A DNA stretch of 64,000 nt from an uncultured Clostridia bacterium (GCA_904501985.1 CAJGCT010000004.1:3629-67628), one strand, 5' to 3'. Positions 26,301 to 48,652 are shown, counted from the first letter of the stretch. Made by a program: numbers and translations. The notes: generated by a model from the letters alone, not told the origin.

Positions 26301-27941
26301 ATCTTCAACGATATGCTTCATGATCACCGCCGTTGACGGAGCGTGTGGGGAAGTTACAACAAACGTATCTCCATCCATGAATGCGAAGGCGGACTGATAC
26401 TCATCTTCGTCATTTTTCGAGTAGGACAGTTCGCGGTTGGAAACACCTACAAGAATCTCATAATCATCTTCAGGCGCAGAGTCGGTAACTATAGAAAGAG
26501 TTTCGCCGGTCAGAACTCTTACACTCGACACAAGCGTTTTTGCCGCTTCGACAACTTTTATGGGGGCATCTTCGGCGATAACTATCTGATAGTTTGTGAT
26601 ATCGTTTCCGTTAAGAGTTACAGTTGAAGAAGGAGCGGTATAAGTGAACGCATTCGCAGCCTCTTTTGAGGGGAAGAAATAGATAGCCTTTATACTGTAT
26701 GTAGCACCCTCAACGTTGGTGTTTGTAAACAGGGAACAGTGAGTAAGTGCGGTATAAGCACCTGTTGCCGAAAGTCTGCTGATAATACCGTCGGGCAGAT
26801 ATACGGTGTCAGTGAGAACGTAATTTCCGTTTGTATCTGTGACATTATTGGAAAGGCGAATAAGCTCTTTACTGTAGCCGTCGTTCAGCATATACATAGA
26901 AGCAGGCTCAGTGAAAGAGTCCGGGTGATCAGCGGCATAAAGCACACGCATAAATCGGTGATTACTGTTAATATAGTCGGTGCTTGTGAATTTCACCTTC
27001 GCCATGTACTTTATGGGGTAGCTCGTTTTACATGTGTAGTCTTCATAACCTTGCGCATTGGTTGATTTAGCATAGGTGATGTCAAGGTCACCGGTTTCAT
27101 CATTGATAGAATGAACGCCGTATTTAGTACCGTCAAGGGTAGTACCTGTGCCGACGATATCAAAGGTCATCGTTGAGAAATCAACCCCGTCGGGTAATTC
27201 ATAACTATTTTCGTAGTGATCATAAGCCTGCTCTTCAGAGCCAAAGAATCCGATTTCCTTGATATAAAATTCAGCATCGGTTGAATCGCTATTAAATGCA
27301 CGATATGCAATCATGCAGTGACCGCCATTAAGAAAACGGGCAAGTATATCGGATGATGAAATATCACGAGCATAGGAGCATACCCATTCACCCTGAGAAA
27401 CAGAGGTGTTATTAGCAAGAGTAACTGTATCTCCCGTGAGGTTGTTGGTTATAGTCAGGGTGCCGGGGAGTTCGTCTTTTGTCATATAAATTATACTGAT
27501 ATATTTATGGTCCTCAGTAAGCTCAACAGGCAGACTGTTGTCCGAGTTCTTTACGAATTTCGGCATAACGCGATACGATGGTAAAGAGTCGTATTCGTCG
27601 TATAAAAGCTGGAGAGCGGTAGATTCATCATCGTTGGCGTCTTTAACGCTCACAAACTTATACAGCTCCCCCTCTCCGCCTGTATCTTCGAAGAAGCTGT
27701 ATTTCTGAGGATCATTACGATCAAACCAACCACCGTCATTGTGCCAAGGATCCTCGTCAGTAAAGCTCATGATAACGGGTTCGGGAAGTGTGTCCGGAGT
27801 GGTGTCCTCGGTAAACGTATTATAAGGAACATATAATACATCCGGGGCAGTCGCAGATACGCTTACAGTCATTGAGATAGTCAAGACTACCGCAAGCATA
27901 GCTGAAACGACTGCAAAAATAGGTCTCAAAAATTTCTTCAT
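23334..27941 (-). CDS. Secreted multidomain BNR/Asp-box propeller protein with internal dockerin (paralog 2)
   Basis: Signal peptide. The ATG at 27941 has a GAGGAGA RBS. Contains two unknown N-terminal modules, an alpha/beta module, a jelly-roll, and a propeller (SNDNGVSW, SNDEGKNW, SDDHGDTW, STDGGANF, STDGKEW). Dockerin repeats GDANSDGKATLEDL and DLNDDGAITPLDSVLFARHL lie at about 24360-24545, followed by a C-terminal extension of roughly 340 aa. Confidence 0.9.
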   Translation of the reverse strand: MKKFLRPIFAVVSAMLAVVLTISMTVSVSATAPDVLYVPYNTFTEDTTPDTLPEPVIMSFTDEDPWHNDGGWFDRNDPQKYSFFEDTGGEGELYKFVSVKDANDDESTALQLLYDEYDSLPSYRVMPKFVKNSDNSLPVELTEDHKYISIIYMTKDELPGTLTITNNLTGDTVTLANNTSVSQGEWVCSYARDISSSDILARFLNGGHCMIAYRAFNSDSTDAEFYIKEIGFFGSEEQAYDHYENSYELPDGVDFSTMTFDIVGTGTTLDGTKYGVHSINDETGDLDITYAKSTNAQGYEDYTCKTSYPIKYMAKVKFTSTDYINSNHRFMRVLYAADHPDSFTEPASMYMLNDGYSKELIRLSNNVTDTNGNYVLTDTVYLPDGIISRLSATGAYTALTHCSLFTNTNVEGATYSIKAIYFFPSKEAANAFTYTAPSSTVTLNGNDITNYQIVIAEDAPIKVVEAAKTLVSSVRVLTGETLSIVTDSAPEDDYEILVGVSNRELSYSKNDEDEYQSAFAFMDGDTFVVTSPHAPSTAVIMKHIVEDFMGAKLLAKPKSVSIAEDFSLEYEYSRLVKQDWDAYDETVADPDRFYDRFGFDNGFWTEENAADNWHFEDGTYNSDGNGKTLSYIHTFEPNVEYNMDIMYTDADSDGDMGLMLRYNSADAYVKAGYDFETSKWHITSREGADFYKVRHASSEEVEIEPGEWYSLKFIVNGTTATLSVDGEDILYVDDLTHVTPGRIAVYADDVAMSVKNADIYMLSGEGTVIPNVAHTKLETNAYTEGGTVHELNDGTLVYHHQNGYGFYSNDNGVSWVEREPRFPTSYGYMNVIRLLPRDGQDHGDFMQIITGDDGKKYSATSNDEGKNWTIGKNPICSGKYQSTTAVAVNMNDKLFQSAKNGRIFYSQSYEATSGSVDGRKVFCEFYYSDDHGDTWTKSNTDSWTIEGNGNQTYFGECKILECEDGTIRMYNSWNDYGCIVYSESTDGGANFGPLVKMTDFPCSRSSMQFVRDPYADNATTYYMVWVNAEGYTIDGTMPRARLTLAKSTDGKEWEILGDIWRWESNYAIGAHINHVVDPFIQVTEDYVIVGSGISENIGLSTDAAISSSHHSQRQHIYSIKKSTLGAELPPIVYYGDANSDGKATLEDLTIFNRYLASWTDYNDEVYDFTTFDLNDDGAITPLDSVLFARHLADWDKYRDIELIKYIPNVSNDRYIITSGSTRTPKVGTASEVGLPAAIYGNDNASYYRYDNYAVELETGEKVPVYSTVKLNTNRVYRVDENNVAYVTDELIGTLDNTSHNNTNHWRNAKVNKSYWGSRNYVKYGITDTNSSSTVNYDDWKWYQTRLYSASATDATKAEANAKILEYAKALTAVINTAIDSGLNVDNADYSSVASSNLNGIKAFVKPYIEAGVKLAADGSDIVFETIPQSVYDIELLTVNAAASFDSDGNLTLTMKGESVIDASDNVKDLVVVNQSDLAIWRYSEKPETTLKVLHNAPQVVVVGKPGQNDAYGKFFERSLKDGVAVVMIGTINAES

Positions 27942-27986
27942 CTTAAAATTTCTCCTCATAAATTAAAGATTTGTACACCTAGGTTC

Positions 27987-28015
27987 ATTATAACATATTA
28001 TCAGTTTTTTGTCAA
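27987..28015 (-). promoter_or_regulatory. Consensus sigma-A promoter of paralog 2
   Basis: TTGACA, 17 nt, TATAAT. Confidence 0.7.
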
Positions 28016-28050
28016 TATACAATTCAAATTTGAACATAATTCAAAAATTA

Positions 28051-28272
28051 GATGCGCGCCGCCACGCGGTCGCGCCCACCACACAAACGATTACTGAAAC
28101 CCAAAGCCGCCGGAATGGTGAGGACCCATGCAGGCGGCGCGAGTATGGCGTACGAGCGATTCTGCATTCACGTTGCCTTAGCGGTAGGTGATTCCTTGTA
28201 TAAAGTTCTTTGCCAGGCTTTCTATGCACATCGCTATGCGATGTGCTCAAGAACAGCCGCGTGTCCTCTACA
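28051..28272 (-). repeat. Interspersed structured repeat, copy A (long form)
   Basis: Its reverse complement aligns base-for-base over most of its length with 36946-37165. Shared blocks include CCGCCGGAATGGTGAGGACCCATGCAGGCGGCGCGAGT and the hairpin GCACATCGC-NNN-GCGATGTGC. Confidence 0.85.
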
Positions 28273-28306
28273 CAAAAAAATAGCTCCCACACAAGGTAGG
28301 AGCTAT
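28273..28306 (-). terminator. Terminator of paralog 3
   Basis: On the minus strand: ATAGCTCC...GGAGCTAT followed by TTTTTTT. Confidence 0.8.
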
Positions 28307-28314
28307 TCTCATCA

Positions 28315-31300
28315 TTATTCGCCGTAAACGGTTACGTAGTTGTGGAACATGGTTGCAACGAGTGCACGGGATGCAGGAGCGGTGGGATTCAGCTTGCCGC
28401 CCTGACCTGCGTATACGCCGTTTTCGACTGCCCACTTAACGCCGTCTGCCGCCCAAGAGGATACAGACGCGCCGTCGGTGAAGTCTGCCACGGTCTTGCC
28501 GGATGCAGTCGCCGCGGACTTGGAGCCGTTGTAACGGGAGAGCATGAGGCAAATCTGCTCAACGGTAACTTCGCCGTTAACGCCGTAGAGACCGTTGCCA
28601 ATGCCGTTTACAACATTGTTTGCAGCCGCCCACTCAACGTAAGAGGTGTACCACTGACCTGCCACTACATCCTTGAATGTAGGTGTGGTGTACGCCGACA
28701 TATCAGCACCGTCAAGACGACCGAGAACGGTCACGAACATGGAGCGTGTCATGGTAGTGGAGGGAGAGAAGGTAGTTTCGGATGTGCCGTTGAAGAGACC
28801 CTTCTCGGTTACGAAGTTGATTGCGCTGTAGTAGGAGGTTCCCAGCGGAACATCAGTGAACTTGTTTATTGTTCTTGCAGCAGGAAGCGATGCCTTGGGA
28901 ATGGACCAAATGTGCTGACGCTGTTCGTTGTGGTAGTCAGAACCGAATTTCTCGGAAAGACCTGTGCCGCATACGATATAGTCCTCAGTTACATTGATGA
29001 AGGGGTCAACGATGTGAGAAATAGCAATACTGTTGCTGCCTCCGCGCCATCTGCACTCCCAACGCCAGATGTCACCGATGTAATCCCAATTCTGACCGTC
29101 AGTGGAGTATGCAAGAGAGAGTCTTGAACGCTTGGGAAGACCGTTCTGGTCAACGCCGTCATCATAGCACCAAAGCATGTAGTAGGTGGTGTCGGTAGGA
29201 CCGTAGGGGTCACGAACAAACTGCATACTGGAATGAGAGGACTTGAAGCCTTCAAGCTCTTTGAAAGGACCGAAGGTTACGCCACCGTCAGTGGATTCTG
29301 CATACATGATGTTTCCGAGAATGTTCCAAGAGCAGTATGCGCGAACAGTGCCGTCAGCACACTGAAGGAGCTTGTTCTCACCGAAGAACTTTTCGTCCTT
29401 CGCACCTTCAATCTCATGAGAACCGGTTTCGGAGCGGTTCCATGTAAGACCGTTGTCGTCGGAATAGTAGTATTCGCAGAATACCTTCTTGGTGAAGTCG
29501 TTGCCTCTGTTGTCATAGTTGAGACCGTAGAAAATTCTGTTGGTAGTACCGGACTGAGAGAACTTGTCGTTCATGTTTCCGCCGCCAACGCCCATTTCAG
29601 GGTGGATCACAGGGCAGATAACGCCGCCCTCGATCCAAGTCTTGGAATCGTTGGAGGAGAGCCTTGCAACAACATAGTCAACGCCGCCAACGCTCTTAGT
29701 GCCTGCCTGAATGAGCTGACCGTTGTTGAGTCTGAATACGTTCATGTAACCGTAGTTGTTGACCCAAAGGTCGGTGCGCTGCCATGTAGCACCGTTGTCA
29801 ATAGACTGGAATGCCGCATTTCTGTGGTTCTGATACTTCCATACGTTGTTATCCATGATAACTACAGAGCCGCCCTCACGGAACATTTCGTCGGGAAGTA
29901 CATGATGAACTACATCCTTGAAAATAGTACCCTCACCGGACATAAGCACTGCCTCAAAGTTGTCGGCAGATACCGAAACGCCGTCGGAATATACACCAAA
30001 GCGACCGGGAGTGATATGCTCAACTTCACACTCAACAACAACCGCACCGTTAACGGTGAATACAGCCTTCTTGCCGTTAAGTGTAAGATTAAGAACATAT
30101 TCGGTGTTAGGAGCAACTGTAGCAGCCGCGCTTCCTGCGCGGATAAGGCTAAGGTCAATACCTTCGCGGAAATCAACGTACCATTCACCGGTTCTGAAAT
30201 CATAGCCGGCTTTTACGTAACCGTCGGGAGAAACATAGCGTGCGATAAGACCCATGCTGCCTTTTTTAGCGGCGCTGGTGTAGGAAACAGTGGCAGTAAC
30301 GGATACGTTAGGCTCGTATACATGAACATAAGCTACAGAGTAATCACTGCCGCCATAAGTAAGTGCGCCGTTCTGGTATTTCCAGAGCTTTGCACCGTTT
30401 TCTTCGGTGAAGTAACCCTCATCATCGGTGAAATCTTCTGTAAATACTATAGGATCAGATACATTAACGGTATAAGGAGTGTTGTAAGCTTCGTAGGGGC
30501 TGTATTTTACAGCATTGCCGTAGAAACGTACTTTTCCCTCAACTTTGATTTCATCCGGAACGTCGGGCATTCCCATGTAGAGGAAGGACATGAGGAACTT
30601 TTCAGCAGCCACTTCGCAAGCCGCGGGAACATACGCGTTCAGAACTATCTTTTCATCTACGAGGTCGCCACAGTATACAGCGTAGCTTGCGCCGTCCGCC
30701 ATAAGCTCGTTAAGGTAAATACCGGAAGCCTTACGGTTTGTCGGACCTACGAGGATCTCGTACTTGCTCTCGTCCACATCATCGGTAACGATATGGAGAG
30801 TGTGACCGCTTACAGTGCTAACATATTTGGAAATAGAAGATGCTGCATCGTAAACGTAGCTGCTTGAATTTTCAGGGATAACTATCTTATACTTAGAAAT
30901 ATCGTTACCTGCGATAGTTACAGGACGGGTCTCTTTCACATAAACAAAATTGTCAGCCGCTTCCTTGGTGGGGAAGAGGAAGATACCCTTTATGGAGTAT
31001 TCGCCGCCATCTACAGCGGTAGTGGTATAGAACGAGAAGTGACCGCCCTTTGCAAAACGTGCAGGGAAGCTTGAGGGGAGAAGGAATGTTTCGGTCATTA
31101 CATATTCGCCGTTTGTGTCCTTAAGATCCTTGGAGATCGACAGGGGCGCTCCGCCTGCGTCATTCTTCATGTTGAACTCTGCGGTAGTAACACCGTCAGG
31201 ATGCTTTGCACTGTACAGAATGCGCATATAGGTGAAGTCAGTGTAATAGTCGCTGGGATCCTCGAATCTGATCTTCGCCATGTAGTGAACATTCTGGAAG

Positions 31301-32100
31301 TTGGTAGTTTCGGTATAGACTATCTTTACCGCTTCTTCAACCTGATCTATTTCATACTTACCGTAATTCGCTTCAGAGAGGATACCTGCGTTGCCTGCCG
31401 CACCGAATGTGATTGCGGAATAAGCGGGCTTTTCAGGAGGAGGCGGAACTTCTTCACCGTAGTATGCATATGCATCCTCTACGCTCTTGAAGAACGCGAT
31501 CTCCTTTATGCACATATCCGCATCTTCGTGCTCAGCGGTATATTCAAGCATAATATTGCCCTTGCCAACGAATCCGCCGATAACGCCCTCCGGAAGCTCA
31601 ACAGGAGCAGAGATAACCCACTCGCCGTTTGAAAGCTTGGTGTTGGGAACTATTTTCGGCAGGTTGGAGGACTGTCTGAAGATAAGGGAAGCCGCAACAG
31701 CATCAGTCGACCTGTATGTAACGCGTACAAACTTGAAGTCGCTTGTGATATAGTTTGCTTCGCTGAACTGAGGAATACAGCGGTAAGCATTGTACTTTGT
31801 TACTTTGCCCTCATAAAGAAGCTTTATATAAGGCGCATCGGGGTCGTCCTTTGTGATAATCTTGTATTTGCCCTGTGTAACACCGTCCGATATTACACCG
31901 AGAGCGTTTTTGTTTTTGATCATGTTGGGCGTTGTATCAAATCTGATGATACGAGCCTCCGGAGTGGCTGCGGGAGCCGTAGCGGTTTCGGGAGCCGTAG
32001 CGGTAATAAGCTGCTCCGCACTGACTGCCGTCAGCGATGCTGTAAGACAGAGCATAGCTGCCGCGGCAATGGAAATAATTTTTCCAAGCTTTGGTAACAT
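28315..32100 (-). CDS. Secreted multidomain BNR/Asp-box propeller protein with C-terminal SLH repeats (paralog 3)
   Basis: Signal peptide ...LTAVSAEQ, then the same module order as paralog 2. Three SLH-like repeats (FTDVPLGTSYY..., FKDVVAGQWY..., FTDGASVSSWA...) lie at about 28318-28865. Confidence 0.9.
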   Translation of the reverse strand: MLPKLGKIISIAAAAMLCLTASLTAVSAEQLITATAPETATAPAATPEARIIRFDTTPNMIKNKNALGVISDGVTQGKYKIITKDDPDAPYIKLLYEGKVTKYNAYRCIPQFSEANYITSDFKFVRVTYRSTDAVAASLIFRQSSNLPKIVPNTKLSNGEWVISAPVELPEGVIGGFVGKGNIMLEYTAEHEDADMCIKEIAFFKSVEDAYAYYGEEVPPPPEKPAYSAITFGAAGNAGILSEANYGKYEIDQVEEAVKIVYTETTNFQNVHYMAKIRFEDPSDYYTDFTYMRILYSAKHPDGVTTAEFNMKNDAGGAPLSISKDLKDTNGEYVMTETFLLPSSFPARFAKGGHFSFYTTTAVDGGEYSIKGIFLFPTKEAADNFVYVKETRPVTIAGNDISKYKIVIPENSSSYVYDAASSISKYVSTVSGHTLHIVTDDVDESKYEILVGPTNRKASGIYLNELMADGASYAVYCGDLVDEKIVLNAYVPAACEVAAEKFLMSFLYMGMPDVPDEIKVEGKVRFYGNAVKYSPYEAYNTPYTVNVSDPIVFTEDFTDDEGYFTEENGAKLWKYQNGALTYGGSDYSVAYVHVYEPNVSVTATVSYTSAAKKGSMGLIARYVSPDGYVKAGYDFRTGEWYVDFREGIDLSLIRAGSAAATVAPNTEYVLNLTLNGKKAVFTVNGAVVVECEVEHITPGRFGVYSDGVSVSADNFEAVLMSGEGTIFKDVVHHVLPDEMFREGGSVVIMDNNVWKYQNHRNAAFQSIDNGATWQRTDLWVNNYGYMNVFRLNNGQLIQAGTKSVGGVDYVVARLSSNDSKTWIEGGVICPVIHPEMGVGGGNMNDKFSQSGTTNRIFYGLNYDNRGNDFTKKVFCEYYYSDDNGLTWNRSETGSHEIEGAKDEKFFGENKLLQCADGTVRAYCSWNILGNIMYAESTDGGVTFGPFKELEGFKSSHSSMQFVRDPYGPTDTTYYMLWCYDDGVDQNGLPKRSRLSLAYSTDGQNWDYIGDIWRWECRWRGGSNSIAISHIVDPFINVTEDYIVCGTGLSEKFGSDYHNEQRQHIWSIPKASLPAARTINKFTDVPLGTSYYSAINFVTEKGLFNGTSETTFSPSTTMTRSMFVTVLGRLDGADMSAYTTPTFKDVVAGQWYTSYVEWAAANNVVNGIGNGLYGVNGEVTVEQICLMLSRYNGSKSAATASGKTVADFTDGASVSSWAADGVKWAVENGVYAGQGGKLNPTAPASRALVATMFHNYVTVYGE

Positions 32101-32172
32101 TTTTGATTCTCCTTTTTATAAAAGATTTTAGAGAGCACTTGTAAATATGATTACAAGACACCCATCATACAT

Positions 32173-32201
32173 ATTTTAACATAAACGATTGATTTTTTCA
32201 A
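32173..32201 (-). promoter_or_regulatory. Promoter of paralog 3
   Basis: TTGAAA, 17 nt, TAAAAT. Confidence 0.55.
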
Positions 32202-32234
32202 TATGATAGACGAAAATATGTCGTATTTTACTAA

Positions 32235-32254
32235 TATTGTGTTGGATTATGCAT
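32235..32254 (-). promoter_or_regulatory. Conserved 20-nt upstream motif (copy a)
   Basis: TATTGTGTTGGATTATGCAT (plus strand) begins 34 nt upstream of the -35. A near-identical copy sits at the same spacing before paralog 4. Confidence 0.4.
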
Positions 32255-32298
32255 TTTTCAGAGTTGAGGCATCACTAACACATATTTACAGGCAATTA

Positions 32299-34950
32299 TT
32301 AAAGAGTAAATTTCTTTGTGTTTTTGTTATATTTCTTGCCGGAGGGAAGTGTGTCACGGCGAATCGCCCAGATGTGCTGACGCTGTTCGTTGTGATAGTC
32401 CTTACCGAATTTTTCGGAAATCCCCGATCCTGTGATGATGTAATCCTCTGTGAGCTTGATAAAGGGGTCAACGAGATGACAAATGGGCGCACTTACGTAT
32501 CCGCCGCGCCATCTGCATTCCCAGCGCCAGATATCACCCAGGTACTCCCATTCCTTACCGTCGGTGCTGTAGGCAAGGCAGAGTCTTGCGCGGACAGGGT
32601 GGATCGGGTCGCGCTCACCTATGTTATAGACCCATACCATAAAGTATGACGTATCTGTAGGACCGTATGGGTCGCGGACAAACTGCATACTTGAATGGGA
32701 TGAGATAAAGCCTTCAAGATTCTGAAGCGGTCCGAAGGTCATACCGCCGTCCTTGGAGTCCGAATACACGATATTTCCCATGCGGTTCCATGAGCAGTAC
32801 ATACGAATAGTTCCGTCAGCACATTCAAGAAGCTTGTTTTCACCGAAGAATGTGGTATTGCCGTTGTCCTTTATGTCAAGAGAGCCCATGTCAGCCTTGT
32901 ACCAGCTCTTTCCGTTATCGTCAGAGTAGTAGTACTCGCAGAATACACGCTTGGTGTTGATATCGGTAGACCTGTTATCATAGTTCAGGCTGAAGAATAT
33001 TCTGTCGTCTCTTCCGGACTGCATGATCTTATCGTTCATGTTTCCGCTGCCAACGCCAAGCTTCGGATGAACCGCCGGGCAGATGATTCCGTCATCTGTC
33101 CATGTAACACCCTCGTCGGTGCTTGAGCGCGAGTAGACGTAATCTACACCGTCAACGGTCTTTCGTGCGATCTGCATGATGGCACCGTTGTTAAGGCGAA
33201 GCAGGTTGAAATAGCTGGTTATATCAGCCCATTTTTCGGTGCGCTCCCATGTAGTACCGTTGTCAAGGGATTTGAACGCCGCGCCTCTTTGATGGCGGTA
33301 CATCCATACGTTGTCCTTAAGAACGATAACAGAGCCGCCCTCACGGTATTCGTCATCGGGGAGCAGGGTATGAACGGCATTTCTGAATATCGTGCCCTCA
33401 CCGGACAGAAGCACAGCCTTGTAGTTCTCAGCCGTCACCGTAACGCCGTCGGCATAAACGCCGATACAGCCGGGAGTTACGTGGTATATCTCACATTCAA
33501 CCGTAGGCTCGCCGTTGACTGTGAGAGTTGCTTTTTTGCCGTCAACGGTGAAGTTCAGTGTGTATTTTGTATCGGGAGTGAGGACATCCGGCTTGCTTGC
33601 CCAGCGCATAACGCCAAGGTCGAAGCCTTCGCGGAATTCGATGTACCATTCACCTCGTCTGAAGTCATAACCTGCCTTTGCATAGCCGGCAGAGGCAACA
33701 TAGCGCGCCACAAGACCGAAATTAGCGTATTTATCGGCATTTTTGTAGGAGAGGGTCACTGTTTCGGACACATTCTGCTCGTAAACGTGAACATAGGATA
33801 CAGAATAGCCGTTTCCGGTGTAAACATATGCTCCGTTTTCGTATTTCCAGAGCTTTTCGCCGTTTTCCTCGGTGAAGTAACCCTTGTCGGATGCAAAATC
33901 CTCGCAGAATACGGTAGGATCAGCCACATTGACCGGATCATCGTAAACAGCGTATGGGCTGTGTCTGATTACATGACCGGAGAAGCGGATAGGAGCGTCA
34001 ATGTCTATTATTTCCGGAATTTGCGGCATACCCTTGTAAAGGTACGTCATGACAAATTTCTCTACAGCCTGCTCGCACGCCGCAGGAACAAGTGCGTTTA
34101 TAACAGGTGTGTTTCCCACAATTTCACTGCAATATACGGTGTAGGGTGCACCTGCATCAAGAAGCTCCTTAAGGTATACGCCAGACAGCTTGCGGTTGGT
34201 GCTTCCCATGAGTATCTCATACTTGCCGTCAGGCTCGTCGTCGGTGACAACAGGGAGATTGACGCCGCAGAGGGACTTTATGTAATCTGCAAGGATATTC
34301 GCGGCATTTGCAACTTCTGCGCAGGAATTCACAGGAATGACTATCTTATAATTTGCGATATCATTGCCCATTATTTTTATCTGATGATTTTCGCTTTCAG
34401 GAGTTGGCACAACAGGCTCGTCGCCGTAGTACGCGTATGCGTCAGCTTCGGATTTGAAGAAAGCAACCTCTTTTATGCATATATCCGCATCGAAATGCTC
34501 GGCGGTATATTCCATCATGACATTGCCCTTACCAACGAACAGCTCCATAATGTCCTCGGACACTTCAAAGGGCGCTGATACGACCCATTCGCCGTTTGAA
34601 AGCTTGGTGTTTGGAACGATTTTTGGGATATTTGAGGAACGTCTGAAGGTGATGGACGAAGCAACCTTGTCGGTTGTTCTGTATTTCACGCGCACATACT
34701 TATATTCAGCGGTGATAAAATTCGGCTCGCTGAACTGAGGAATACAGCGGTATGATTTATACTGAACGGGAGTTGCTTGATGATAAAACTTTATATATGG
34801 AGCATCGGGATCGTCTTTTGTGACGATTTCATACTTACCGTGTGTGATTCCGTCACCGCAGACGCAAAGCGTATTTTTATTTTTTTCCATATTGGACGCC
34901 GTATCAAACTTTATAATACGGGCATCAGGTTTTGCAAAACATTGTGACAT
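32299..34950 (-). CDS. BNR/Asp-box propeller protein lacking both signal peptide and anchor (paralog 4)
   Basis: Collinear with paralog 3 from ARIIKFDT onward. AAGGAGA lies upstream of the ATG at 34950 (MSQCFAKPD...). There is no hydrophobic leader. The second N-terminal module and the SLH repeats are absent. Confidence 0.85.
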   Translation of the reverse strand: MSQCFAKPDARIIKFDTASNMEKNKNTLCVCGDGITHGKYEIVTKDDPDAPYIKFYHQATPVQYKSYRCIPQFSEPNFITAEYKYVRVKYRTTDKVASSITFRRSSNIPKIVPNTKLSNGEWVVSAPFEVSEDIMELFVGKGNVMMEYTAEHFDADICIKEVAFFKSEADAYAYYGDEPVVPTPESENHQIKIMGNDIANYKIVIPVNSCAEVANAANILADYIKSLCGVNLPVVTDDEPDGKYEILMGSTNRKLSGVYLKELLDAGAPYTVYCSEIVGNTPVINALVPAACEQAVEKFVMTYLYKGMPQIPEIIDIDAPIRFSGHVIRHSPYAVYDDPVNVADPTVFCEDFASDKGYFTEENGEKLWKYENGAYVYTGNGYSVSYVHVYEQNVSETVTLSYKNADKYANFGLVARYVASAGYAKAGYDFRRGEWYIEFREGFDLGVMRWASKPDVLTPDTKYTLNFTVDGKKATLTVNGEPTVECEIYHVTPGCIGVYADGVTVTAENYKAVLLSGEGTIFRNAVHTLLPDDEYREGGSVIVLKDNVWMYRHQRGAAFKSLDNGTTWERTEKWADITSYFNLLRLNNGAIMQIARKTVDGVDYVYSRSSTDEGVTWTDDGIICPAVHPKLGVGSGNMNDKIMQSGRDDRIFFSLNYDNRSTDINTKRVFCEYYYSDDNGKSWYKADMGSLDIKDNGNTTFFGENKLLECADGTIRMYCSWNRMGNIVYSDSKDGGMTFGPLQNLEGFISSHSSMQFVRDPYGPTDTSYFMVWVYNIGERDPIHPVRARLCLAYSTDGKEWEYLGDIWRWECRWRGGYVSAPICHLVDPFIKLTEDYIITGSGISEKFGKDYHNEQRQHIWAIRRDTLPSGKKYNKNTKKFTL

Positions 34951-35019
34951 TTCTGCAATTCTCCTTACAACATATTCCGGGAAAGGCACTTATTTAAAGA
35001 TAAAATCTCTCCCAAAATC

Positions 35020-35048
35020 ATTTTATCATAAGCTACTTGATATTTCAA
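35020..35048 (-). promoter_or_regulatory. Promoter of paralog 4
   Basis: TTGAAA, 17 nt, TAAAAT, the same architecture as at 32173-32201. Confidence 0.55.
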
Positions 35049-35081
35049 TACGTTATACATAATTATGTCGTAATTTGCAAG

Positions 35082-35101
35082 TATTGTGGTGGATTGTGCA
35101 T
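35082..35101 (-). promoter_or_regulatory. Conserved 20-nt upstream motif (copy b)
   Basis: TATTGTGGTGGATTGTGCAT has 2 mismatches to copy a and the same distance to the -35. Confidence 0.4.
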
Positions 35102-35261
35102 TTTGGTCGAATTTTTGCTTCAACATCCACCCCGGAAACCGTGAATTCAACAGGGGACGAAAATCTCTATTGGTTTGATGAAAAAACTCTTATCTGAGCC
35201 CGCTCTTGGAAAAACAGCGAAATTTTTCGCCGTTTTTCGCTTATATTCGTCACAATAACAC

Positions 35262-35290
35262 TTGACCTTGCAGATAATTTCTGATATAAT
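35262..35290 (+). promoter_or_regulatory. purH promoter
   Basis: TTGACC, 17 nt, TATAAT, 35 nt before the start codon. Confidence 0.65.
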
Positions 35291-35324
35291 AGTATACAAA
35301 TAAACACATACGAGGTAAAAACCA

Positions 35325-36890
35325 ATGAAAAAGCGCGCAATAATCAGTCTTACCGACAAAACAGGCGTTGTTGAGTTTGCTCGTGAGCTTGACGCTCTCG
35401 GCTACGAAATACTCTCAACAGGCGGAACATGGAAGGTAATTAACGATGCCGGAATCCCCGTAACTCAGGTTTCCGACGTTACAGGCTTCCCGGAATGTCT
35501 TGACGGACGTGTTAAGACCCTCCATCCCCTCATTCATGCAGGTATTCTTGCGATGAGAAGCAATCCTGAGCACATGGCTCAGATCGCTGAGCTTGGTGTT
35601 ACTCCTATTGACATTGTAGCTATCAACCTCTACGCTTTCAAGGACACCATCATGAAGCCCGGCGTTACCCGTGAGGACGCAATCGAGCACATCGACATCG
35701 GCGGTCCTACAATGCTCCGTGCGGCGGCTAAGAATTACCAGGACGTTTCCGTTATCGTTGATCCTGCTGATTACACAACCGTTATTGATGAGCTTAAGGC
35801 TAACGGCAAGGTATCTGTAGACACCAACCTGAAGCTTGCTTACAAGGTATTCAACCACACTGCGGCATACGACACACTTATTCAGTCCTATCTTCGTGTT
35901 GAGACCGATATGCCCATATTCCCTGAAAAGCTTTCTCTCACCTACGAAAAGGTACAGGATATGCGCTACGGCGAGAATCCCGGTCAGCTTGCGGCTTTCT
36001 ACAAGGAGATCGGTCACTTCGACGGTACTCTTGCGGCGGCAGAGCAGCTTCACGGCAAGGAGCTTTCCTACAACAACATCAATGACACCAACGGTGCTCT
36101 TGAGTGCCTCAAGGAATTTGACGAGCCCTGCGTTGTTGCAGTTAAGCACGCAAATCCCTGCGGAGTTGGCGTTGGAAACGACATCTACGCCGCTTACATG
36201 AACGCATACAATGCAGATCCCGTTTCCATTTTCGGCGGTATTATCGCTTGCAACCGCAAGGTTGATGCGGCAACCGCAGCCGAGATCAACAAGATCTTCG
36301 TTGAGATCGTTATCGCTCCCGATTTCGATGCTGATGCTCTTGAAATCCTTCAGAAGAAGGCAAACATCAGAATCCTCAGACTCCCTGAGATCGCAAAGCC
36401 CAACACCAAGGATATGCTTGACATGAAGCGTGTTGCAGGCGGTCTTCTCGTACAGGAGCGCGATATCGGCGTTTACGACGATGCCGAGCTTAAGGTTGTT
36501 ACCGAAAAGGCTCCCACCGAGGCTGAAATGGCTGATCTTAAGTTTGCTATGAAGGTTGTTAAGCACACCAAATCTAATGCTATCGTTCTCGCAAAGAACG
36601 GCATTACAACAGGTATCGGCCCCGGTCAGACCAACCGTATCACCGCTCTTGAGCTTGCAATAAGATATGCCAACGAGCTTGAGGGAACAGAGAAGAACAG
36701 AGCGGCAGGCAGTGTTATGGCCTCCGATGCATTCTTCCCGTTCTCCGACTGCGTTGAGGCTGCTCACAAGGCTGGCATCACCGCTATCATCCAGCCCGGC
36801 GGCTCTATCCGCGACCAGGAGTCCATTGATGCCTGCAACAAGTACGGCATTGCAATGATCTTCACCGGTCAGAGACATTTCAAGCACTAA
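35325..36890 (+). CDS. purH: Bifunctional AICAR transformylase / IMP cyclohydrolase
   Basis: MGS-like N-terminus [24 protein letters not shown], and a C-terminal AICARFT domain ending FTGQRHFKH. Confidence 0.95.
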
Positions 36891-36908
36891 TTATATGCAT
36901 ATAAAATC

Positions 36909-36942
36909 TCCCCAAGGAGCGTTTGCTTCTTGGGGATTTTTT
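36909..36942 (+). terminator. purH terminator
   Basis: 11-bp stem CCCCAAGGAGC / GCTTCTTGGGG with a GTTT loop, then TTTTTT. Confidence 0.85.
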
Positions 36943-36945
36943 GTG

Positions 36946-37165
36946 TGGGGTACGGTCGCTGTTTTTGAGCACATCGCTTGCGATGTGCTGAAAGCATCCG
37001 CAAAGAACTTTATACAGGGAATTATCACACCGCTGAGGCGATGTAATTTTAGAATCGTTAGGACGCCACACTCGCGCCGCCTGCATGGGTCCTCACCATT
37101 CCGGCGGCTTGGGTTGCGGTAATCGTTTGTGTTTTGGGGGGCGCGACCGCTTTGCGGCGCGCGGT
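36946..37165 (+). repeat. Interspersed structured repeat, copy B (long form)
   Basis: Inverted relative to copy A. Like copy A, it starts directly after a terminator T-run plus GTGT(G/A)G. Confidence 0.85.
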
Positions 37166-37268
37166 ATGTGGTGACTGAGTAACACTCGTAGGGACAGGCA
37201 TCCTCGATGCTCCGTTCACGGTAATATTCCCATTGGAACGAATTTCCATATATTTATGCGTACATATC

Positions 37269-37297
37269 TTGACAATTTAGTGTTAACATGGTACAAT
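37269..37297 (+). promoter_or_regulatory. pyk promoter
   Basis: TTGACA, 17 nt, TACAAT with an upstream TG. Confidence 0.65.
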
Positions 37298-37348
37298 AAT
37301 AACATAGAATTTTTAGCATAGCGAAAACCAAGGAGACTACCCAAAAAA

Positions 37349-38764
37349 ATGAGAAAGACCAAACTTATATGCACCATAGGACCTGCCTGCGAGGATGAAG
37401 AGACTCTTACCAAAATGTGCCTTGAGGGCATGAACGTAGCGAGACTCAACTTCTCCCATGGAACACACGAGGACCATCAGACCAAGATCGACACCATCAA
37501 AAAGGTGAGAAGCAAGCTCGGTTTGCCTGTTGCTATAATGCTTGACACCAAGGGTCCGGAATACAGAATAAAGACCTTTGAAAATAAGAAGGTGACTCTT
37601 CGCGAGGGAGATACTTTTATATTTACCACTGATGATATCGTTGGAAACGAAGAGCGAGTTGCTGTCAACTACGCGCATCTGACAGATGATCTTTCCTGCG
37701 GCGACACCATAACCGTAAACAACGGACTTGTTATATTCAATGTCACCGAAATACAGGGGCACGACGTTATATGCAAGGTAGTTGTGGGCGGCGAGCTTTC
37801 CGACAGAAAGAGTATGCATTTCCCGGGCATCGTAATGAAGCACGAATTTTTAAGTGAGCAGGACAAGGCTGATCTTCTTTTCGGTATACAGAACGATATA
37901 GATTTTGTGGCGGCATCCTTTGTATCAAATAAAAACGACGTGCGCGACATAAGAAACTTCCTCAACGAAAACGGCGGCGAGCAGATTGATATTATCGCAA
38001 AGATAGAAAATCGCTCCGGTGTTGACAACATTGAAGAAATATGCGAGCTTGCGGACGGAATAATGATAGCCCGCGGCGACCTTGGTGTGGAAATACCGTT
38101 CATTGAGGTTCCCTCAATACAGAAATATCTTATCAACAAGTGCAGACTTCTCGGTATCAGAGTTATAACCGCCACGGAAATGCTAGAATCCATGATACAC
38201 AATCCGCGCCCCACAAGAGCAGAGCTGTCCGACGTTGCAAATGCCGTATACGACGGCACCTCGGCTGTCATGCTTTCCGGCGAGACGGCATCGGGAAAAT
38301 ATCCCGTAAAGGCAGTAAAAAACATGGCAGAGATCGCCGCATTCACCGAGCGAACCATAGATTACAGTGAGCGCTTCAGAACTACGGAATTCAAGATACG
38401 CAACAGCATAGATGCCCTCTCTCATTCTGCTTGCTCCATGGCAATAGCACTTGATGCAAAGGGTCTTGTAGTCAACTCCATAAGCGGTAAGACCGCAAGA
38501 ATGGTAAGCCGTTTCAGATGCCCTGTGGACATTCTCGGTATGACCACATCGGAAAAGGTATGGCGCAAGCTGAATCTCAGCTGGGGTGTAACTCCCGTGA
38601 TGTGCGAGGAGTTTTCCTCAATGGAGGTTATGTTCTACAGTGCCATGAAGCGTGCTGAGGAAATATATTCCCTTGAAAAGGGCGACAGCGTGGTTATGAC
38701 CGGCGGTCAGATAAACGGCAAATCCGGCAATTCCAACGTTATTAAGATAGAACAGGTTCACTGA
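37349..38764 (+). CDS. pyk: Pyruvate kinase
   Basis: MRKTKLICTIGPA, ARLNFSHG, MIARGDLGVEIP, MLSGETASGKYP. Confidence 0.95.
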   Translation: MRKTKLICTIGPACEDEETLTKMCLEGMNVARLNFSHGTHEDHQTKIDTIKKVRSKLGLPVAIMLDTKGPEYRIKTFENKKVTLREGDTFIFTTDDIVGNEERVAVNYAHLTDDLSCGDTITVNNGLVIFNVTEIQGHDVICKVVVGGELSDRKSMHFPGIVMKHEFLSEQDKADLLFGIQNDIDFVAASFVSNKNDVRDIRNFLNENGGEQIDIIAKIENRSGVDNIEEICELADGIMIARGDLGVEIPFIEVPSIQKYLINKCRLLGIRVITATEMLESMIHNPRPTRAELSDVANAVYDGTSAVMLSGETASGKYPVKAVKNMAEIAAFTERTIDYSERFRTTEFKIRNSIDALSHSACSMAIALDAKGLVVNSISGKTARMVSRFRCPVDILGMTTSEKVWRKLNLSWGVTPVMCEEFSSMEVMFYSAMKRAEEIYSLEKGDSVVMTGGQINGKSGNSNVIKIEQVH

Positions 38765-38781
38765 TAGTAGCACCGCGAAAA

Positions 38782-38812
38782 AATCCCCAAGGAGCAGCTC
38801 CTTGGGGATTTT
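38782..38812. terminator. Bidirectional terminator between pyk and sigG
   Basis: Stem AAATCCCCAAGGAGC / GCTCCTTGGGGATTT. Confidence 0.85.
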
Positions 38813-38822
38813 CATATGGATT

Positions 38823-39608
38823 TCACATATCCTTTTTGATTCGTTCCAGTGCCGATTTTTCGATTCTCGACACCTGTGCCTGGGAAATGCCGATCTCACC
38901 GGCTATTTCCATCTGCGTGCGCCCCTTGAAATACCTCATTTCGATAATATTTTTCTCCCTTGGCGAAAGACGCTTCATTGCTTCGCGCAGTGCGATATCT
39001 TCAAGCCACGCCTCGTCGGTATTGTCGTTGTCGCTTATCTGATCCATTATATAAATGGAATCACCGCCGTCGGAAAATACCGGCTCATAGAGACTGACCG
39101 GCTCAACTATTGCTTCAAGTGCCGCGCCAACTTCTTCCTTTGGTACATCCACAAGCTTTGCAATATCTTCAAGAGTCGGCTCACGGTCAAGCGTTCTTGT
39201 GAGCTGCTCGCGCGCCTGAAGTGCGCGGTATGCAAGATCGCGGACAGAGCGGCTGACGCGCACTGCGTTATTGTCACGAAGATATCTTCGTATCTCGCCG
39301 ATTATCATTGGAACGGCGTAGGTGGAAAATTTTACATCAAGCGTAGTATCGAAATTGTCAACCGCTTTTATAAGACCGATGCATCCGACCTGAAAAAGGT
39401 CATCGAGATTCTCTCCGCGGCTTGCAAATCGCTGAATTATAGACAAAACAAGTCTGAGATTTCCGTTTATCAGGGTATTTCTCGCAAAGTCGTCGCCTTC
39501 CTTGGATTTAATAAGCAATTCACGCTTTTCTTCAGCGTTTAGCGTTGGGAGTGCGGCTGTATTTACGCCGCATATTTCAACCTTGCGGCTGTAGGTGTTT
39601 GACTTCAT
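38823..39608 (-). CDS. sigG: Sporulation sigma factor SigG
   Basis: VEICGVNTAALP, GNLRLVLSIIQRF, FSTYAVPMIIGEIRRYLRDNN and ISQAQVSRIEK closely follow Bacillus SigG as I recall it. Confidence 0.85.
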   Translation of the reverse strand: MKSNTYSRKVEICGVNTAALPTLNAEEKRELLIKSKEGDDFARNTLINGNLRLVLSIIQRFASRGENLDDLFQVGCIGLIKAVDNFDTTLDVKFSTYAVPMIIGEIRRYLRDNNAVRVSRSVRDLAYRALQAREQLTRTLDREPTLEDIAKLVDVPKEEVGAALEAIVEPVSLYEPVFSDGGDSIYIMDQISDNDNTDEAWLEDIALREAMKRLSPREKNIIEMRYFKGRTQMEIAGEIGISQAQVSRIEKSALERIKKDM

Positions 39609-40877: not shown

Positions 40878-40966
40878 TTTATATTATCCTTTCAAGAATT
40901 AAATCGTTTTTTATTATACACCCATCGTCTGATAAAATCAAGTGCGCAATTGTAAATGTTAAAGAT

Positions 40967-41024
40967 GGAACGGTCGCTGTTCTTGAGCACATCGCGAAGC
41001 GATGTGCTGAAAGCATCCGAAAAT
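40967..41024 (+). repeat. Interspersed repeat, copy C (short form, 5' hairpin module only)
   Basis: GGAACGGTCGCTGTTCTTGAGCACATCGCGAAGCGATGTGCTGAAAGCATCCG matches the first ~58 nt of copy B. Confidence 0.8.
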
Positions 41025-41059
41025 ATTTTGCCAAAATGTAATATTTTTTAGAAAAGCTA

Positions 41060-41088
41060 TTGACAAATAGGATACAATAGTGTATAAT
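41060..41088 (+). promoter_or_regulatory. Consensus promoter of tRNA-Leu
   Basis: TTGACA, 17 nt, TATAAT with TG at the extended -10, 30 nt before the tRNA. Confidence 0.7.
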
Positions 41089-41118
41089 ATATAAGTCGTT
41101 TAACGGCACACATATTAT

Positions 41119-41203
41119 GCGAGAGTGGCGGAACTGGCAGACGCGCACGTTTGAGGGGCGTGTAGTTCACACTGTACGGGTTCAAGTCCCGTTTCTCGCA
41201 CCA
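41119..41203 (+). tRNA. tRNA-Leu (anticodon GAG), type II with long variable arm, encoded CCA
   Basis: Folded by hand. Acceptor GCGAGAG/TTCTCGC, anticodon stem CACGT/GCGTG with loop TTGAGGG, T arm ACGGG-TTCAAGT-CCCGT, discriminator A, then CCA. Confidence 0.85.
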
Positions 41204-41263
41204 TAAAAAAGCCAAAAGCATTTGCTTTGGGCTTTTTTATCGTCCGTGATATGGTTCGAAGAA
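41178..41263 (+). repeat. Direct repeat copy 1: tRNA-Leu 3' end plus terminator and flank
   Basis: GGGTTCAAGTCCCGTTTCTCGCACCATAAAAAAGCCAAAAGC...TTCGAAGAA. Confidence 0.85.
41207..41239 (+). terminator. Terminator after tRNA-Leu
   Basis: AAAAGCCAAAAGCA...TGCTTTGGGCTTTTTT. Confidence 0.75.
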
Positions 41264-41325
41264 ATCGTATGCAAGAATCCCCACGGGATTCTTGGCCGAG
41301 CTGACGCCGGAGGCGGCTGCTCGTA

Positions 41326-41415
41326 GGGTTCTCACAAGTCCCGTTTCTCGCACCATAAGAAAGTCAAAAGCGTTTGCTTTTGGCTTTTTTATCGCCCGTG
41401 ATAAGCTTCGAAGAA
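41326..41415 (+). repeat. Direct repeat copy 2: degenerate tRNA 3' end plus terminator
   Basis: The same sequence 148 nt downstream, with a 4-nt TCAC insertion in the T-loop and scattered substitutions. No matching 5' acceptor strand lies upstream. Confidence 0.85.
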
Positions 41416-41432
41416 GGGGAGGAAATTATACC

Positions 41433-41939
41433 GTGATTATTGCGGCACAGATTATCGGAATAGCGGCAGTTGCCTCGTTTTTACTTAGCTTTCAGTTCAA
41501 AAGTCGAAAAAATATACTTGCCGTCAACATCCTGTCAAGAGCTTTGTACATACTTCAGTATGTGATGCTTGGAGCTTTTGAAGGCGCTGTACTTGATTTT
41601 CTCGGTATGATTTCATCTGTTATTGCAAAATACAAGGACAAAGCGCCGATACGAAGATACTGTATTATAACTATGATCGCGATAAATGTGTTATTAACTG
41701 CGGTCGGTCTTGTGCTTTACGAAAATATATTCAGCATGTTTGCAATCTTTGGCATCGTCCTTGAGGTCACTGCATTATGGATAACAAAAGAAGCACACAT
41801 AAGGAAGATTTCGCTCCTTGCGGCACCTTTTTGGCTTACATATAATCTGTCAAATCTTGCCTACGGTTCTGCTGTGGGAAATGTTCTTGTGATACTCTCA
41901 ATAACCGCCGCAATGATAAGATATGACAGAAGGAAATAA
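41433..41939 (+). CDS. YgjV-like small inner membrane protein
   Basis: GTG at 41433 follows GGAGGA. Five or six hydrophobic helices. The annotated ATG at 41292 would read through the pseudo-tRNA and terminator copy. Confidence 0.6.
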   Translation: MIIAAQIIGIAAVASFLLSFQFKSRKNILAVNILSRALYILQYVMLGAFEGAVLDFLGMISSVIAKYKDKAPIRRYCIITMIAINVLLTAVGLVLYENIFSMFAIFGIVLEVTALWITKEAHIRKISLLAAPFWLTYNLSNLAYGSAVGNVLVILSITAAMIRYDRRK

Positions 41940-48651: not shown

Positions 48652-48652
48652 A

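Follow-up and report, generated by a model that had tools for sequence, protein, structure and literature searches.

Genes and repeats at the locus

The window analysed here, a stretch of 64,000 nucleotides from an uncultured Clostridia bacterium (GCA_904501985.1, CAJGCT010000004.1:3629-67628), contains two inverted copies of a repeat that bracket an 8.6-kb block carrying two BNR/SLH paralogs and purH. Copy 1 lies at 28054-28273 on the minus strand (nhmmer, E=2e-49) and copy 2 at 36943-37162 on the plus strand (profile search, E=3e-51). When one is reverse-complemented, the two align with 87.7% identity across 211 positions, with a local alignment score of 137.5 vs 12.9 +/- 2.3 for shuffles, which bears out the preliminary description of the pair as one non-coding element in inverted orientation. 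Their longest unbroken identical run is only about 40 nt, and their G+C content is 56% vs 47% for the window. The neighbourhood of the pair contained no recombinase gene.

Each copy was said to begin immediately after a terminator T-run plus GTGT(G/A)G, and this is the case for both. The T-run of the purH intrinsic terminator (36909-36936, plus strand) leads directly into the GTGT start of copy 2, which reads GTGTGG. Copy 1, with GTGTAG, is abutted by a run of seven T residues (28274-28280) that follows the terminator hairpin (28281-28305, minus strand) of the upstream BNR/SLH paralog gene (28315-32100, minus strand). This hairpin was read by eye in the sequence, as the terminator scan missed it because of its 11-nt loop. 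In the promoter scan, the 5' ends of both copies were free of promoter-like sites, and the downstream genes have their promoters on the far side of the elements, at 28015-27987 (minus strand) and 37269-37297 (plus strand).

Both copies consist of three modules, M1, M2 and H3. The M1 head module of copy 1 (28197-28273, minus strand) runs from the head GTGTAGAGGACACGCGGC through an A/T stem, P1, with a nested hairpin, to the invariant block AACTTTATACA (28197-28207); that of copy 2 spans 36943-37016 on the plus strand and has its nested hairpin at 36969-36988 and its AACTTTATACA block at 37006-37016. The nested hairpin, GCACATCGC-ATA-GCGATGTGC at 28226-28246 (minus strand) in copy 1, has a perfect stem of 9 bp, so that the lower but not the upper end of the 9-11 bp first proposed holds; it is an optional insert at the P1 tip that most copies elsewhere do not have. 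The central hairpin of M2 (28106-28138, minus strand, and 37076-37108, plus strand) has the expected GCCGCC/GGCGGC stem around a 21-nt loop region, TGCATGGGTCCTCACCATTCC, identical in the two copies. The GC-rich 3' hairpin H3 reads GCGCGaCCGC-GTG-GCGGCGCGC in copy 1 (28054-28075, minus strand), where it is followed by ATCTAATTTTT, and GCGCGaCCGC-TTT-GCGGCGCGC in copy 2 (37141-37162, plus strand); only copy 1 of the two has a terminator-like H3 plus T-run. The complementary termini attributed to both copies are found in copy 2 (ACGGTCGC...GCGACCGC), whereas copy 1 has them only in a different register (CACGCGG...CCGCGTG). On the same strand, 3' of copy 2, there is a REP-like unit composed of GTAGGG and a hairpin (GTAGGGACAGGCATCCTCGATGCTCCGT; 37188-37215, plus strand), which is a frequent fourth module of the family. 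The partial third copy is confirmed at 40967-41023 on the plus strand; it consists of M1 only (ACGGTCGC, P1 and nested hairpin), lacks AACTTTATACA and M2, and is placed where synteny to relatives stops.

Family size and modular architecture

With pattern scans and a profile search, the loci collected from relatives plus the window yielded 53 near-full copies and about 20 partial ones, which supports the earlier reading of a multi-copy, structured, non-coding interspersed repeat of the MITE/REP kind. The loop pattern was present in 9 loci of two Candidatus Flemingiibacterium genome assemblies and in 23 loci of one metagenome; most loci were collected by this pattern, and the invariance of the loop is therefore partly an ascertainment effect. 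M1-like heads behind stop codons were also found in a more distant relative, an Anaerotruncus plasmid and a viral contig. With Rfam 15, no family reached the gathering threshold for the repeat, the only hits in the window and six loci being tRNAs, and permissive scans of copy 1 and one long form returned chance-level matches only. As had been noted, ORFs through the copies differ; one frame through copy 1, used as a protein query, gave no match, and the long forms share no conserved ORF.

The unit, of 190-225 nt, comprises up to four modules: M1, M2, H3 and the GTAGGG-headed REP-like hairpin. The consensus of M1, a REP-like head, is (G)T(A/G)T(A/G)GG(A/G)G-ACGGTCGC, an A/T-rich hairpin with a variable tip, and GCTCCGC-A(5-6)-CTTTATACA. 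Its heads are GTAGGRG, GTATAGG or GTGTGGG, with GTAG itself in a minority and GTAT or GTGT in many copies. M2 is a body of about 140 nt with the invariant hairpin, while H3 is found in only some copies, and the GTAGGG hairpin, which is followed by GTTTT, is likewise optional. REP-like hairpins interrupt M2 in 3 copies, and 17 of the 53 copies have one downstream at a distance of at most 120 nt and on the strand of the copy; from the opposite angle, 20 of the 42 such hairpins in 464 kb belong to repeat copies, either inside or downstream. Since M1 types and M2 loop types combine in every way, the copies are mosaics, and their 3' ends vary from one to another.

The commonest form is that of about 220 bp, to which both window copies belong; its complementary termini measure only 7-8 nt and show no co-variation. 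About 11 long forms of 400-540 bp have near-perfect terminal inverted M1 modules of about 55 bp that enclose conserved non-coding DNA, with linkers of about 400 bp, and the left and right M1 of one long form are often of different subtypes. Tail-to-tail dimers (at least five), one tandem pair, many solo M1 modules and shortened units complete the collection. T(T)TG(T/C)(G/A)T stands in front of most copies and GTTTGTGT closes M2, so that a TTTGTGT-like sequence recurs 5' of the element and at the M2 end, and tandem copies join end to start; as this sequence is identical across loci, it is part of either the element or its target preference. The preliminary description had not covered the modular make-up, the longer form with its terminal inverted repeats, the association with GTAGGG units or the position at indel and synteny breakpoints.

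Conservation of the hairpins

The element is very unevenly conserved: AACTTTATACA does not vary in any of 50 copies, whereas identity in the middle is about 50%. The hairpins carry the compensatory changes that a covariation check had been proposed to look for. In the central stem, GCCGCC/GGCGGC changes to GCCTGC/GCAGGC; in H3, C-G pairs change to U-A and to A-U; and in P1, TTTTTT/AAAAAA changes to TTTCTT/AAGAAA. Overall, four pairs are doubly changed, a number that 1 shuffle in 500 attained. Where only one side of a pair has changed in the scored hairpins, the outcome is always G.U on the sense strand of the element, and the M1 outer stem has 115 G.U cells vs 30 A.C cells. Within M1, three runs, one of U and two of A, co-vary in sequence and length, a pattern that might reflect a purine-motif triplex or a two-state switch. 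No fold is common to the middle region, the MFE z-scores of -2.2 and -1.2 are weak, and the variable part is not complementary to the DNA that flanks it.

Placement and polymorphism among relatives

In the genomes of this genus of uncultured gut Clostridia, the repeat is nearly always located just behind gene ends. Single units are co-oriented with the upstream gene in 25 cases and opposite in 6 (n=31), and 22 of the 25 co-oriented units begin within 70 nt of the stop codon. A strong intrinsic terminator precedes both window copies and about 10 others.

The insertion polymorphism that had been suggested as a check is present between close relatives. Copy 2 is missing from six related genomes: five (L034 and L037-L040) have purH, terminator, promoter and pyk without the element, within 128-142 bp vs 451 bp, and the sixth, L043, the nearest relative detected and 95.5% identical over the 8.6-kb block, lacks copy 1 as well, although its genome has at least 12 family copies elsewhere. 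In L010, the orthologous site is occupied by a different variant. Orthologous copies are 77-94% identical, with many indels, vs 95-98% for the upstream coding flank. All three window copies lie at synteny breakpoints, and the family is also found at indel and rearrangement breakpoints. Among the compared loci there was no empty site with identical flanks, which leaves the exact ends of the element undefined.

Searches for direct repeats of flanking DNA detected no target-site duplication at 10 long forms. No transposase of any kind was found beside or between copies, where the enclosed ORFs encode a lipoprotein, a LysM-type protein and small HTH proteins. IS200 TnpA and RAYT queries gave no tblastn match in the 486 kb analysed, which cover a small part of any one genome, and no parent IS with the ends of the element was detected in these 486 kb or in plasmid and phage collections.

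Comparison with known systems

In the portion of the literature consulted here, REP units and longer families with terminal inverted repeats are linked to RAYT/TIRYT tyrosine transposases; REPs are arranged in dimers or clusters, some abutting stop codons, and the species named are mainly Pseudomonas, Stenotrophomonas, E. coli and Acidobacteria (PMC3733652). The present repeat resembles REP/BIME elements in its extragenic hairpin units, G-T-A-G-like head, high copy number and mosaic modules, in the genuine GTAGGG-plus-hairpin units physically joined to it and, as far as that source portrays them, in its tail-to-tail dimers, clusters, stop-codon or 3'-end positions and lack of target duplication. 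The alternating orientation typical of BIMEs is found in the dimers, long forms, tandem pair and mixed modules. Unlike REPs, which measure 20-40 bp, the unit is five to ten times longer, with a long non-palindromic conserved body; the GTAG head is loose in M1, the long-form linkers reach about 400 bp, no RAYT gene was found in the 486 kb, and the host is a member of the Clostridia rather than one of the hosts mainly named in that text.

With bacterial MITEs (Correia/NEMIS, RUP, ERIC, bcr1 and Nezha) it shares a small, non-coding, multi-copy, intergenic and foldable nature, insertion polymorphism between strains, internal indel variants and, in the long form, terminal inverted repeats. It departs from them in its lack of target-site duplication, in the absence of true terminal inverted repeats from the commonest form, in its strong strand bias relative to the upstream gene and in that no parent IS was found. 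Similarity to the non-autonomous IS200/IS605-derived PATEs, with their single-strand 'peel and paste' transposition and insertion 3' of a fixed tetra- or pentanucleotide, lies in the near-end hairpins, the tolerance of G.T on one strand, the lack of duplication and the recurrent TTTGTGT-like sequence; however, the hairpins at the left and right have no sequence relationship to each other, target and cleavage sites are undefined here, no TnpA or TnpB gene was found, and Rfam gave no IS605-type omega-RNA match. Class C group II introns are likewise found right behind the hairpin and T-run of terminators and point the same way as the gene upstream, but the repeat is only about 220 nt long and has neither domain V/VI nor a reverse transcriptase. 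This assignment was rejected, as there was no Rfam intron match; the long-form hairpin GAGCGCGG...CGCGCUGUC did not fit a 34-nt domain V on inspection.

Nature of the repeat

We consider it probable that this is a non-autonomous, non-coding mobile mosaic repeat of MITE/BIME type that has multiplied in Candidatus Flemingiibacterium-like Clostridia. An independent gene family for small RNAs, as entertained in the preliminary description, finds no support, given that neither copy has a promoter-like site at its start, that strong terminators stand in front of the window copies, that the 3' ends vary and that orthologous copies have diverged faster than the upstream coding flank. A host RNA of another kind is unlikely, although it would account for several of the observations: the repeat would be a 3' UTR of the upstream gene, or a small RNA cut from it, with M1, the M2 hairpin and H3 as a functional fold and the REP-like hairpin plus U-run as terminator, and possible roles in mRNA stabilization or in base-pairing or protein binding through the invariant loop. 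The strong same-strand bias and position right behind stop codons, the blocks conserved in all 50 copies, the compensated hairpin changes with one-sided changes restricted to G.U on the sense strand, the three co-varying runs, a REP-like hairpin with GTTTT that could end transcription, and the heads behind stop codons in the distant relative, plasmid and viral contig are all in keeping with such an RNA. Nevertheless, it would have no promoter of its own, and little transcription should reach the copies preceded by a strong intrinsic terminator. Shortened, dimeric and REP-interrupted copies with differing 3' ends are common, orthologous copies are less conserved than the coding flank and full of indels, and genomes that are 95.5% identical differ in presence and absence; the unfolded middle with weak z-scores, the missing complementarity to the flanks and the lack of an Rfam match also tell against it. 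The invariant AACUUUAUACA and the co-varying runs in M1 feed into a broader alternative, to which we give little credence, whereby M1-headed elements are a strand-specific system aimed just behind stop codons or terminators (single-strand or RNA-based), or an RNA module that is widespread in the 3' UTRs of uncultured Oscillospiraceae-like Clostridia.

A classical cut-and-paste MITE, in which the 400-540 bp form is mobile via a DDE transposase and the 220-bp units are immobile one-ended deletion derivatives, appears rather improbable. Near-perfect inverted M1 ends around conserved non-coding DNA, together with many solo M1 modules and shortened units, are what it would produce, but none of 10 long forms has a target-site duplication, the 220-bp form is both the commonest and polymorphic between close relatives, and the two M1 modules of one long form often differ in subtype. 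A gene-relative strand bias would be unexpected for cut-and-paste into double-stranded DNA, and no IS with these ends was found in the sequences and collections searched. It is very improbable that the inverted pair functions in recombination as a module for flipping the 8.6-kb block, as its similarity, orientation and spacing, and the coincidence of family repeats with rearrangement breakpoints, might suggest. In L043, where neither copy is present, the block is oriented towards its two outer flanks just as it is in the window, so that there is no sign of inversion; moreover, the longest identical stretch is short, no recombinase gene is nearby, and the position of each copy is separately explained by the gene-end rule of the family.

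For the mobile mosaic repeat, the one-sided changes limited to G.U, the lack of target-site duplication and the REP/RAYT precedent point to a single-strand, HUH-type mechanism, and we tentatively propose that an HUH/Y1 transposase (RAYT/TIRYT type), which reads hairpins in single-stranded DNA, may catalyse movement in trans; a DDE transposase would likewise be compatible with the 55-bp terminal inverted repeats that bound the long form. Units are found alone, in tandem, as tail-to-tail dimers or as the longer form closed by an inverted M1, and they land, or survive, right behind stop codons or terminator T-runs in the direction of the upstream gene, where they are probably only passively co-transcribed into 3' UTRs. 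Simple decay after a burst does not predict the uneven conservation, which hints at function or gene conversion. The repeat behaves like a small parasitic mobile element and is therefore an undescribed example of a familiar kind, whose main effect on its host would be to provide hot spots for recombination and indels.

Copies of the repeat in the window

The preliminary description had proposed that an 8.6-kb block carrying paralogs 3 and 4 plus purH is bracketed by inverted copies of one element, with a third copy near tRNA-Leu. Copy 1 (28054–28273, minus strand) and copy 2 (36943–37162, plus strand), whose coordinates are approximate element ends, are indeed copies of one element: 211 aligned positions show 87.7% identity, and the local alignment score is 137.5, against 12.9 ± 2.3 for shuffles. 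The third copy was located as a partial match at 40967–41023. The structural details held overall, except that the first hairpin measures 9 bp and not 9–11 bp; the complementary termini are present, with the pairing in copy 1 using a different register. Copy 2 starts with the final T of purH's terminator (36909–36936), and copy 1 is preceded by a hairpin (28281–28305) and T7 terminating the upstream BNR/SLH paralog gene. Neither copy has a promoter-like site of its own, and the sigma-70-type promoters of the next genes, perfect or near-perfect, are located past both elements, which puts each copy between the terminator of one gene and the promoter of the next.

The window encodes four tandem paralogs on the minus strand (21360–34989; 610, 1541, 1261 and 896 aa), with BNR_2, 3-keto-disaccharide-hydrolase or SLH domains. 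Near partial copy 3, the 3′ end and terminator of tRNA-Leu(GAG) (tRNA at 41119–41203; duplicated segment 41183–41263) recur 152 bp downstream at 41335–41415 with 91% identity, a duplicate that, judged from its sequence, looks like a scar of an att site, from an element that had integrated or been excised, or like a decayed tandem tRNA.

Extent of the family

In a single scan of genomes, the pattern of the 21-nt loop matched nine loci, which belong to two assemblies of Candidatus Flemingiibacterium (JAZTWV01 and JAZRGK01); in a single scan of metagenomes, a relaxed version matched 23 loci, almost all within one metagenome. A profile built from 40 copies and searched against the window and these pattern-collected loci gave 76 matches, 53 near-full and about 20 partial, so that scans and profile alike revealed the further copies sought beyond the window. 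Collection by the loop pattern makes the loci a biased sample, and that pattern is missing from 11 of the 53 near-full copies. Among the collected loci only one, L010, is orthologous to the window, which indicates that the window derives from a related species. The family is an abundant, not previously described repeat of a little-known set of gut Clostridia that are represented solely by metagenome-assembled genomes.

The head module of the repeat, M1, extends further. In L036, from a more distant relative, M1 is joined to a different body and lies immediately behind two stop codons; in L037 and L040, mini-palindromes of M1 halves lie behind one terminator; and M1-like heads also follow stop codons on a viral contig and on a plasmid of Anaerotruncus colihominis. 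In plasmid and phage collections the only matches were short M1-like ones, in that plasmid and in a faecal phage record. On plasmid NZ_CP094683.1 (L033; 3650–4060), tandem M1-like A/T hairpins, GCTTTTTTGAAAAAAAGC-CTCG-GCAAAAAAC, lie past a sugar-kinase gene and adjoin a GC-rich repeat block, GGCGCGCGCGACCTGTGCGCAGG...CACCGCCGG; the 52-kb record has four M1-like places. The viral contig IMGVR_UViG_3300029305_011410 (L042; 3030–3130) carries between two genes an M1 variant with a GC-rich insert in place of the A/T stem and with the flanks ACGGGTCGC and GCTCCGCAAAGAACTTTATACA retained.

Modular organization

The repeat unit is modular, comprising M1, a conserved body (M2), an optional 3′ GC hairpin (H3; GCGCGaCCGC-nnn-GCGGCGCGC) and, frequently, a REP-like unit. 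M1 is about 55–60 nt long (about 85 nt where a nested hairpin is present) and runs from a purine-rich head, (G)T(A/G)T(A/G)GG(A/G)G, through ACGGTCGC (or ACGCGGC / ACGCGC) to the A/T stem P1, whose tip may bear the hairpin GCACATCGC...GCGATGTGC; its 3′ part consists of GC-TCC-GC, an A-run and CTTTATACA. The M1 block AACTTTATACA is unchanged in 50 of 50 aligned copies. M2 (~140 nt) has a weakly conserved middle, CGCGCC, a central hairpin, GCCGCC-TGCATGG-(GTCCTCA or CCCCGCA)-CCATTCC-GGCGGC, and then TTGGGTTGCGGTAATCGTTTGTGTGG. The copies are mosaics, since every combination of M1 subtype and loop variant is found.

REP-like units (GTAGGG plus a GC hairpin) often lie 3′ of the element on the same strand, and 20 of 42 in 464 kb are inside a full copy or at most 120 nt downstream of one. 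At about 11 places a long form of 400–540 bp was found, in which M1-M2 (with or without H3 and a REP-like unit) precedes another conserved module, of 200 nt, and then an M1 in inverted orientation, so that the whole is bounded by ~55-bp inverted repeats. Full units also form tail-to-tail pairs at no fewer than five places and a tandem pair at one.

REP-like hairpins of the type GTAGGG(C/G)GGGG occur in this clade as singles and BIME-like inverted pairs (L035, 11655–11745; many other collected loci; window, 37188–37215), also in a genome without the 220-bp element at that site, and no RAYT gene was seen in the DNA examined. In L008 (5704–7692), a gene for a 532-aa protein with a LysM-like C-terminus lies between a truncated unit and an M1 in inverted orientation, an arrangement that could be due to chance or be a passenger-carrying composite.

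Folding and covariation

The whole unit folds slightly better than shuffles (z-scores −2.2 and −1.2), its RNAalifold consensus retains the central hairpin alone, and the middle region of M2 has no fold in common, each copy differing. Across 21 aligned copies, pairing in the central hairpin and H3 stands at 98.7%, with four pairs changed on both sides, a number reached by one in 500 shuffles; five one-sided changes preserve pairing, and each of them gives G.U on the sense strand. P1 changes from TTTTTT/AAAAAA to TTTCTT/AAGAAA in at least 17 copies. Unexpectedly, across 45 short-form M1 modules the A-run before CTTTATACA co-varies perfectly, in sequence and length, with both P1 strands: the classes in the window and L001–L036 (P1 5′/P1 3′/A-run) are T5/A6/A5, T6/A7/A6 and TTTCTT/AAAGAAA/AAAGAA, and in one copy of L036 the third run mirrors the purine strand. 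Candidate explanations are alternative pairing, a mirror-repeat triplex, repeated protein sites or tight linkage. In the outer stem of M1 (TGTATAGG with TTTATACA), variation on the 5′ side is nearly all A/G, and the 115 G.U cells against 30 A.C cells are weak evidence, since the M1 head is G-rich anyway. Judged by eye, a pseudoknot between the purine-rich head and the CCUC loop was rejected because the loop variants GUCCUCA and CCCCGCA are independent of head variants, as was long-range pairing of ACGGTCGC with GCGACCGC, because H3 variants and 5′ subtypes do not co-vary.

Placement, occupancy and breakpoints

Crude, heuristic ORF calls place the upstream gene on the same strand for 25 single units, against 6 on the opposite strand, and 22 of these 25 begin within 70 nt past the upstream stop codon. 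Many units abut a terminator T-run; others abut the stop codon itself.

Five relatives (purH protein identity 93–94%) have purH, terminator, promoter and pyk without the element, and their 111 kb contain no full copy. Every orthologous site among the pattern-selected loci is occupied; the insertion polymorphism anticipated earlier was found as empty sites reached through purH and paralog-3 orthologues. The locus of the closest relative found, JAZTWV (L043), is collinear with the window, and its 95.5% identity spans precisely the 8.6-kb block between the two copies; other parts of that genome carry 12 or more copies. On one side L043 lacks 7.0 kb (copy 1 with paralogs 2 and 1), and on the other it lacks the 1.9 kb that hold copy 2, a REP-like unit and pyk, which places both copies at the inner edge of an indel. 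The block has the same orientation there as in the window, and we thus found no evidence for the inversion that the paired copies had suggested. L010 shares the site and terminator of copy 1 with a different variant, and synteny stops at the 3′ end of the element; synteny of L034, L037 and L040 with the window stops within ~10 bp of partial copy 3. Orthologous copies are 77–94% identical, with many indels, against 95–98% for the upstream coding flank.

Other differences surround these sites. In L043 (1130–1210 versus window 36891–38824), purH and the sigma-factor gene share a single bidirectional terminator, with no pyruvate kinase gene between them; purH followed by pyk is retained in more distant relatives. 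The island from the SpoIID-side genes to purH is hypervariable, with two paralogs only in L043, small ORFs in L037 and DUF4838 genes instead in L034 (five) and L040 (one). DUF4317, a 37-aa ORF and CNNM adjoin in relatives, and window region 40957–57945 is rearranged: the CNNM gene (56360–57724, minus strand) and its promoter lie 17 kb off in the opposite orientation, with one breakpoint at partial copy 3 and just a doubtful M1-head-like string, TGTAGGCAAGATATAACGGAC, at the other (about 57946–57990).

Nature of the element

These data fit a non-autonomous mobile mosaic repeat, given its multiplicity, modular shuffling, truncated and nested copies, presence or absence in near-identical genomes, lack of coding capacity and promoter, and position at breakpoints; the MITE- or REP-like nature first suggested is supported. 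So is its non-coding character: reading frames across the element vary from copy to copy, a search of 5.8 billion proteins with copy 1's antisense frame found no relative, and the long forms have no ORF in common. An internal promoter in M1 was rejected for unacceptable −35/−10 spacing, and sigma-54, sigma-E and sigma-H consensus sequences do not fit. Integron attC (no GTTRRRY core) and dif/Xer sites (no 28-bp dif-like arms) were dropped, the adjacent genes being housekeeping genes, and a variable guide region of the omega- or bridge-RNA type was discarded because own-flank matches are no longer than those to other copies' flanks.

A function as RNA keeps some weight, drawing on the invariant blocks, the orientation rule relative to genes and the three co-varying runs of M1, although the terminators upstream of copies, variable 3′ ends, fast turnover and polymorphism speak against it. 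For the small RNA family considered in the preliminary description, Rfam gave no match at gathering or permissive thresholds (window, copy 1, six loci and a long form); the hairpins do show compensated pair changes. For a mobile repeat, the favoured mover would be a hairpin-reading single-strand enzyme (HUH/Y1, RAYT/TIRYT-like). Pointing to it are the GTAG-like head, the true GTAGGG REP units physically joined to the element on the same strand, the existence of dimers, a wobble pattern specific to one strand, the biased orientation with respect to genes and the absence of any target duplication among the forms inspected. The orientation bias could arise if a preference for one replication strand acted together with the co-orientation of genes with replication. 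Because approximate query sequences found no IS200/RAYT-like ORF or enzyme in the 486 kb examined, this mover is one that we infer; the ORFs between convergent copies, considered as an autonomous partner, are not transposases. The literature (PMC3733652) describes REPs adjoining stop codons, composite inverted repeats in which degenerate GTAG units are joined to unrelated stem-loops, and TIR families tied to RAYT-like genes; like the stop-codon-adjoining REPs of those systems, the element here lies behind gene ends.

The family alone opens no new class of mechanism. Broken-up assemblies, false ORF calls and rearrangement breakpoints in these genomes are easier to understand once the family is recognized, and it provides a strain-typing marker. 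The element joins a REP-like head to a long conserved body, occupies a strand-specific site directly past gene ends and lies at every local indel boundary observed against close relatives. It is therefore a good case for studying target choice by hairpin-based repeats and the reshaping of variable gene islands, here glycan-hydrolase-like paralog arrays.
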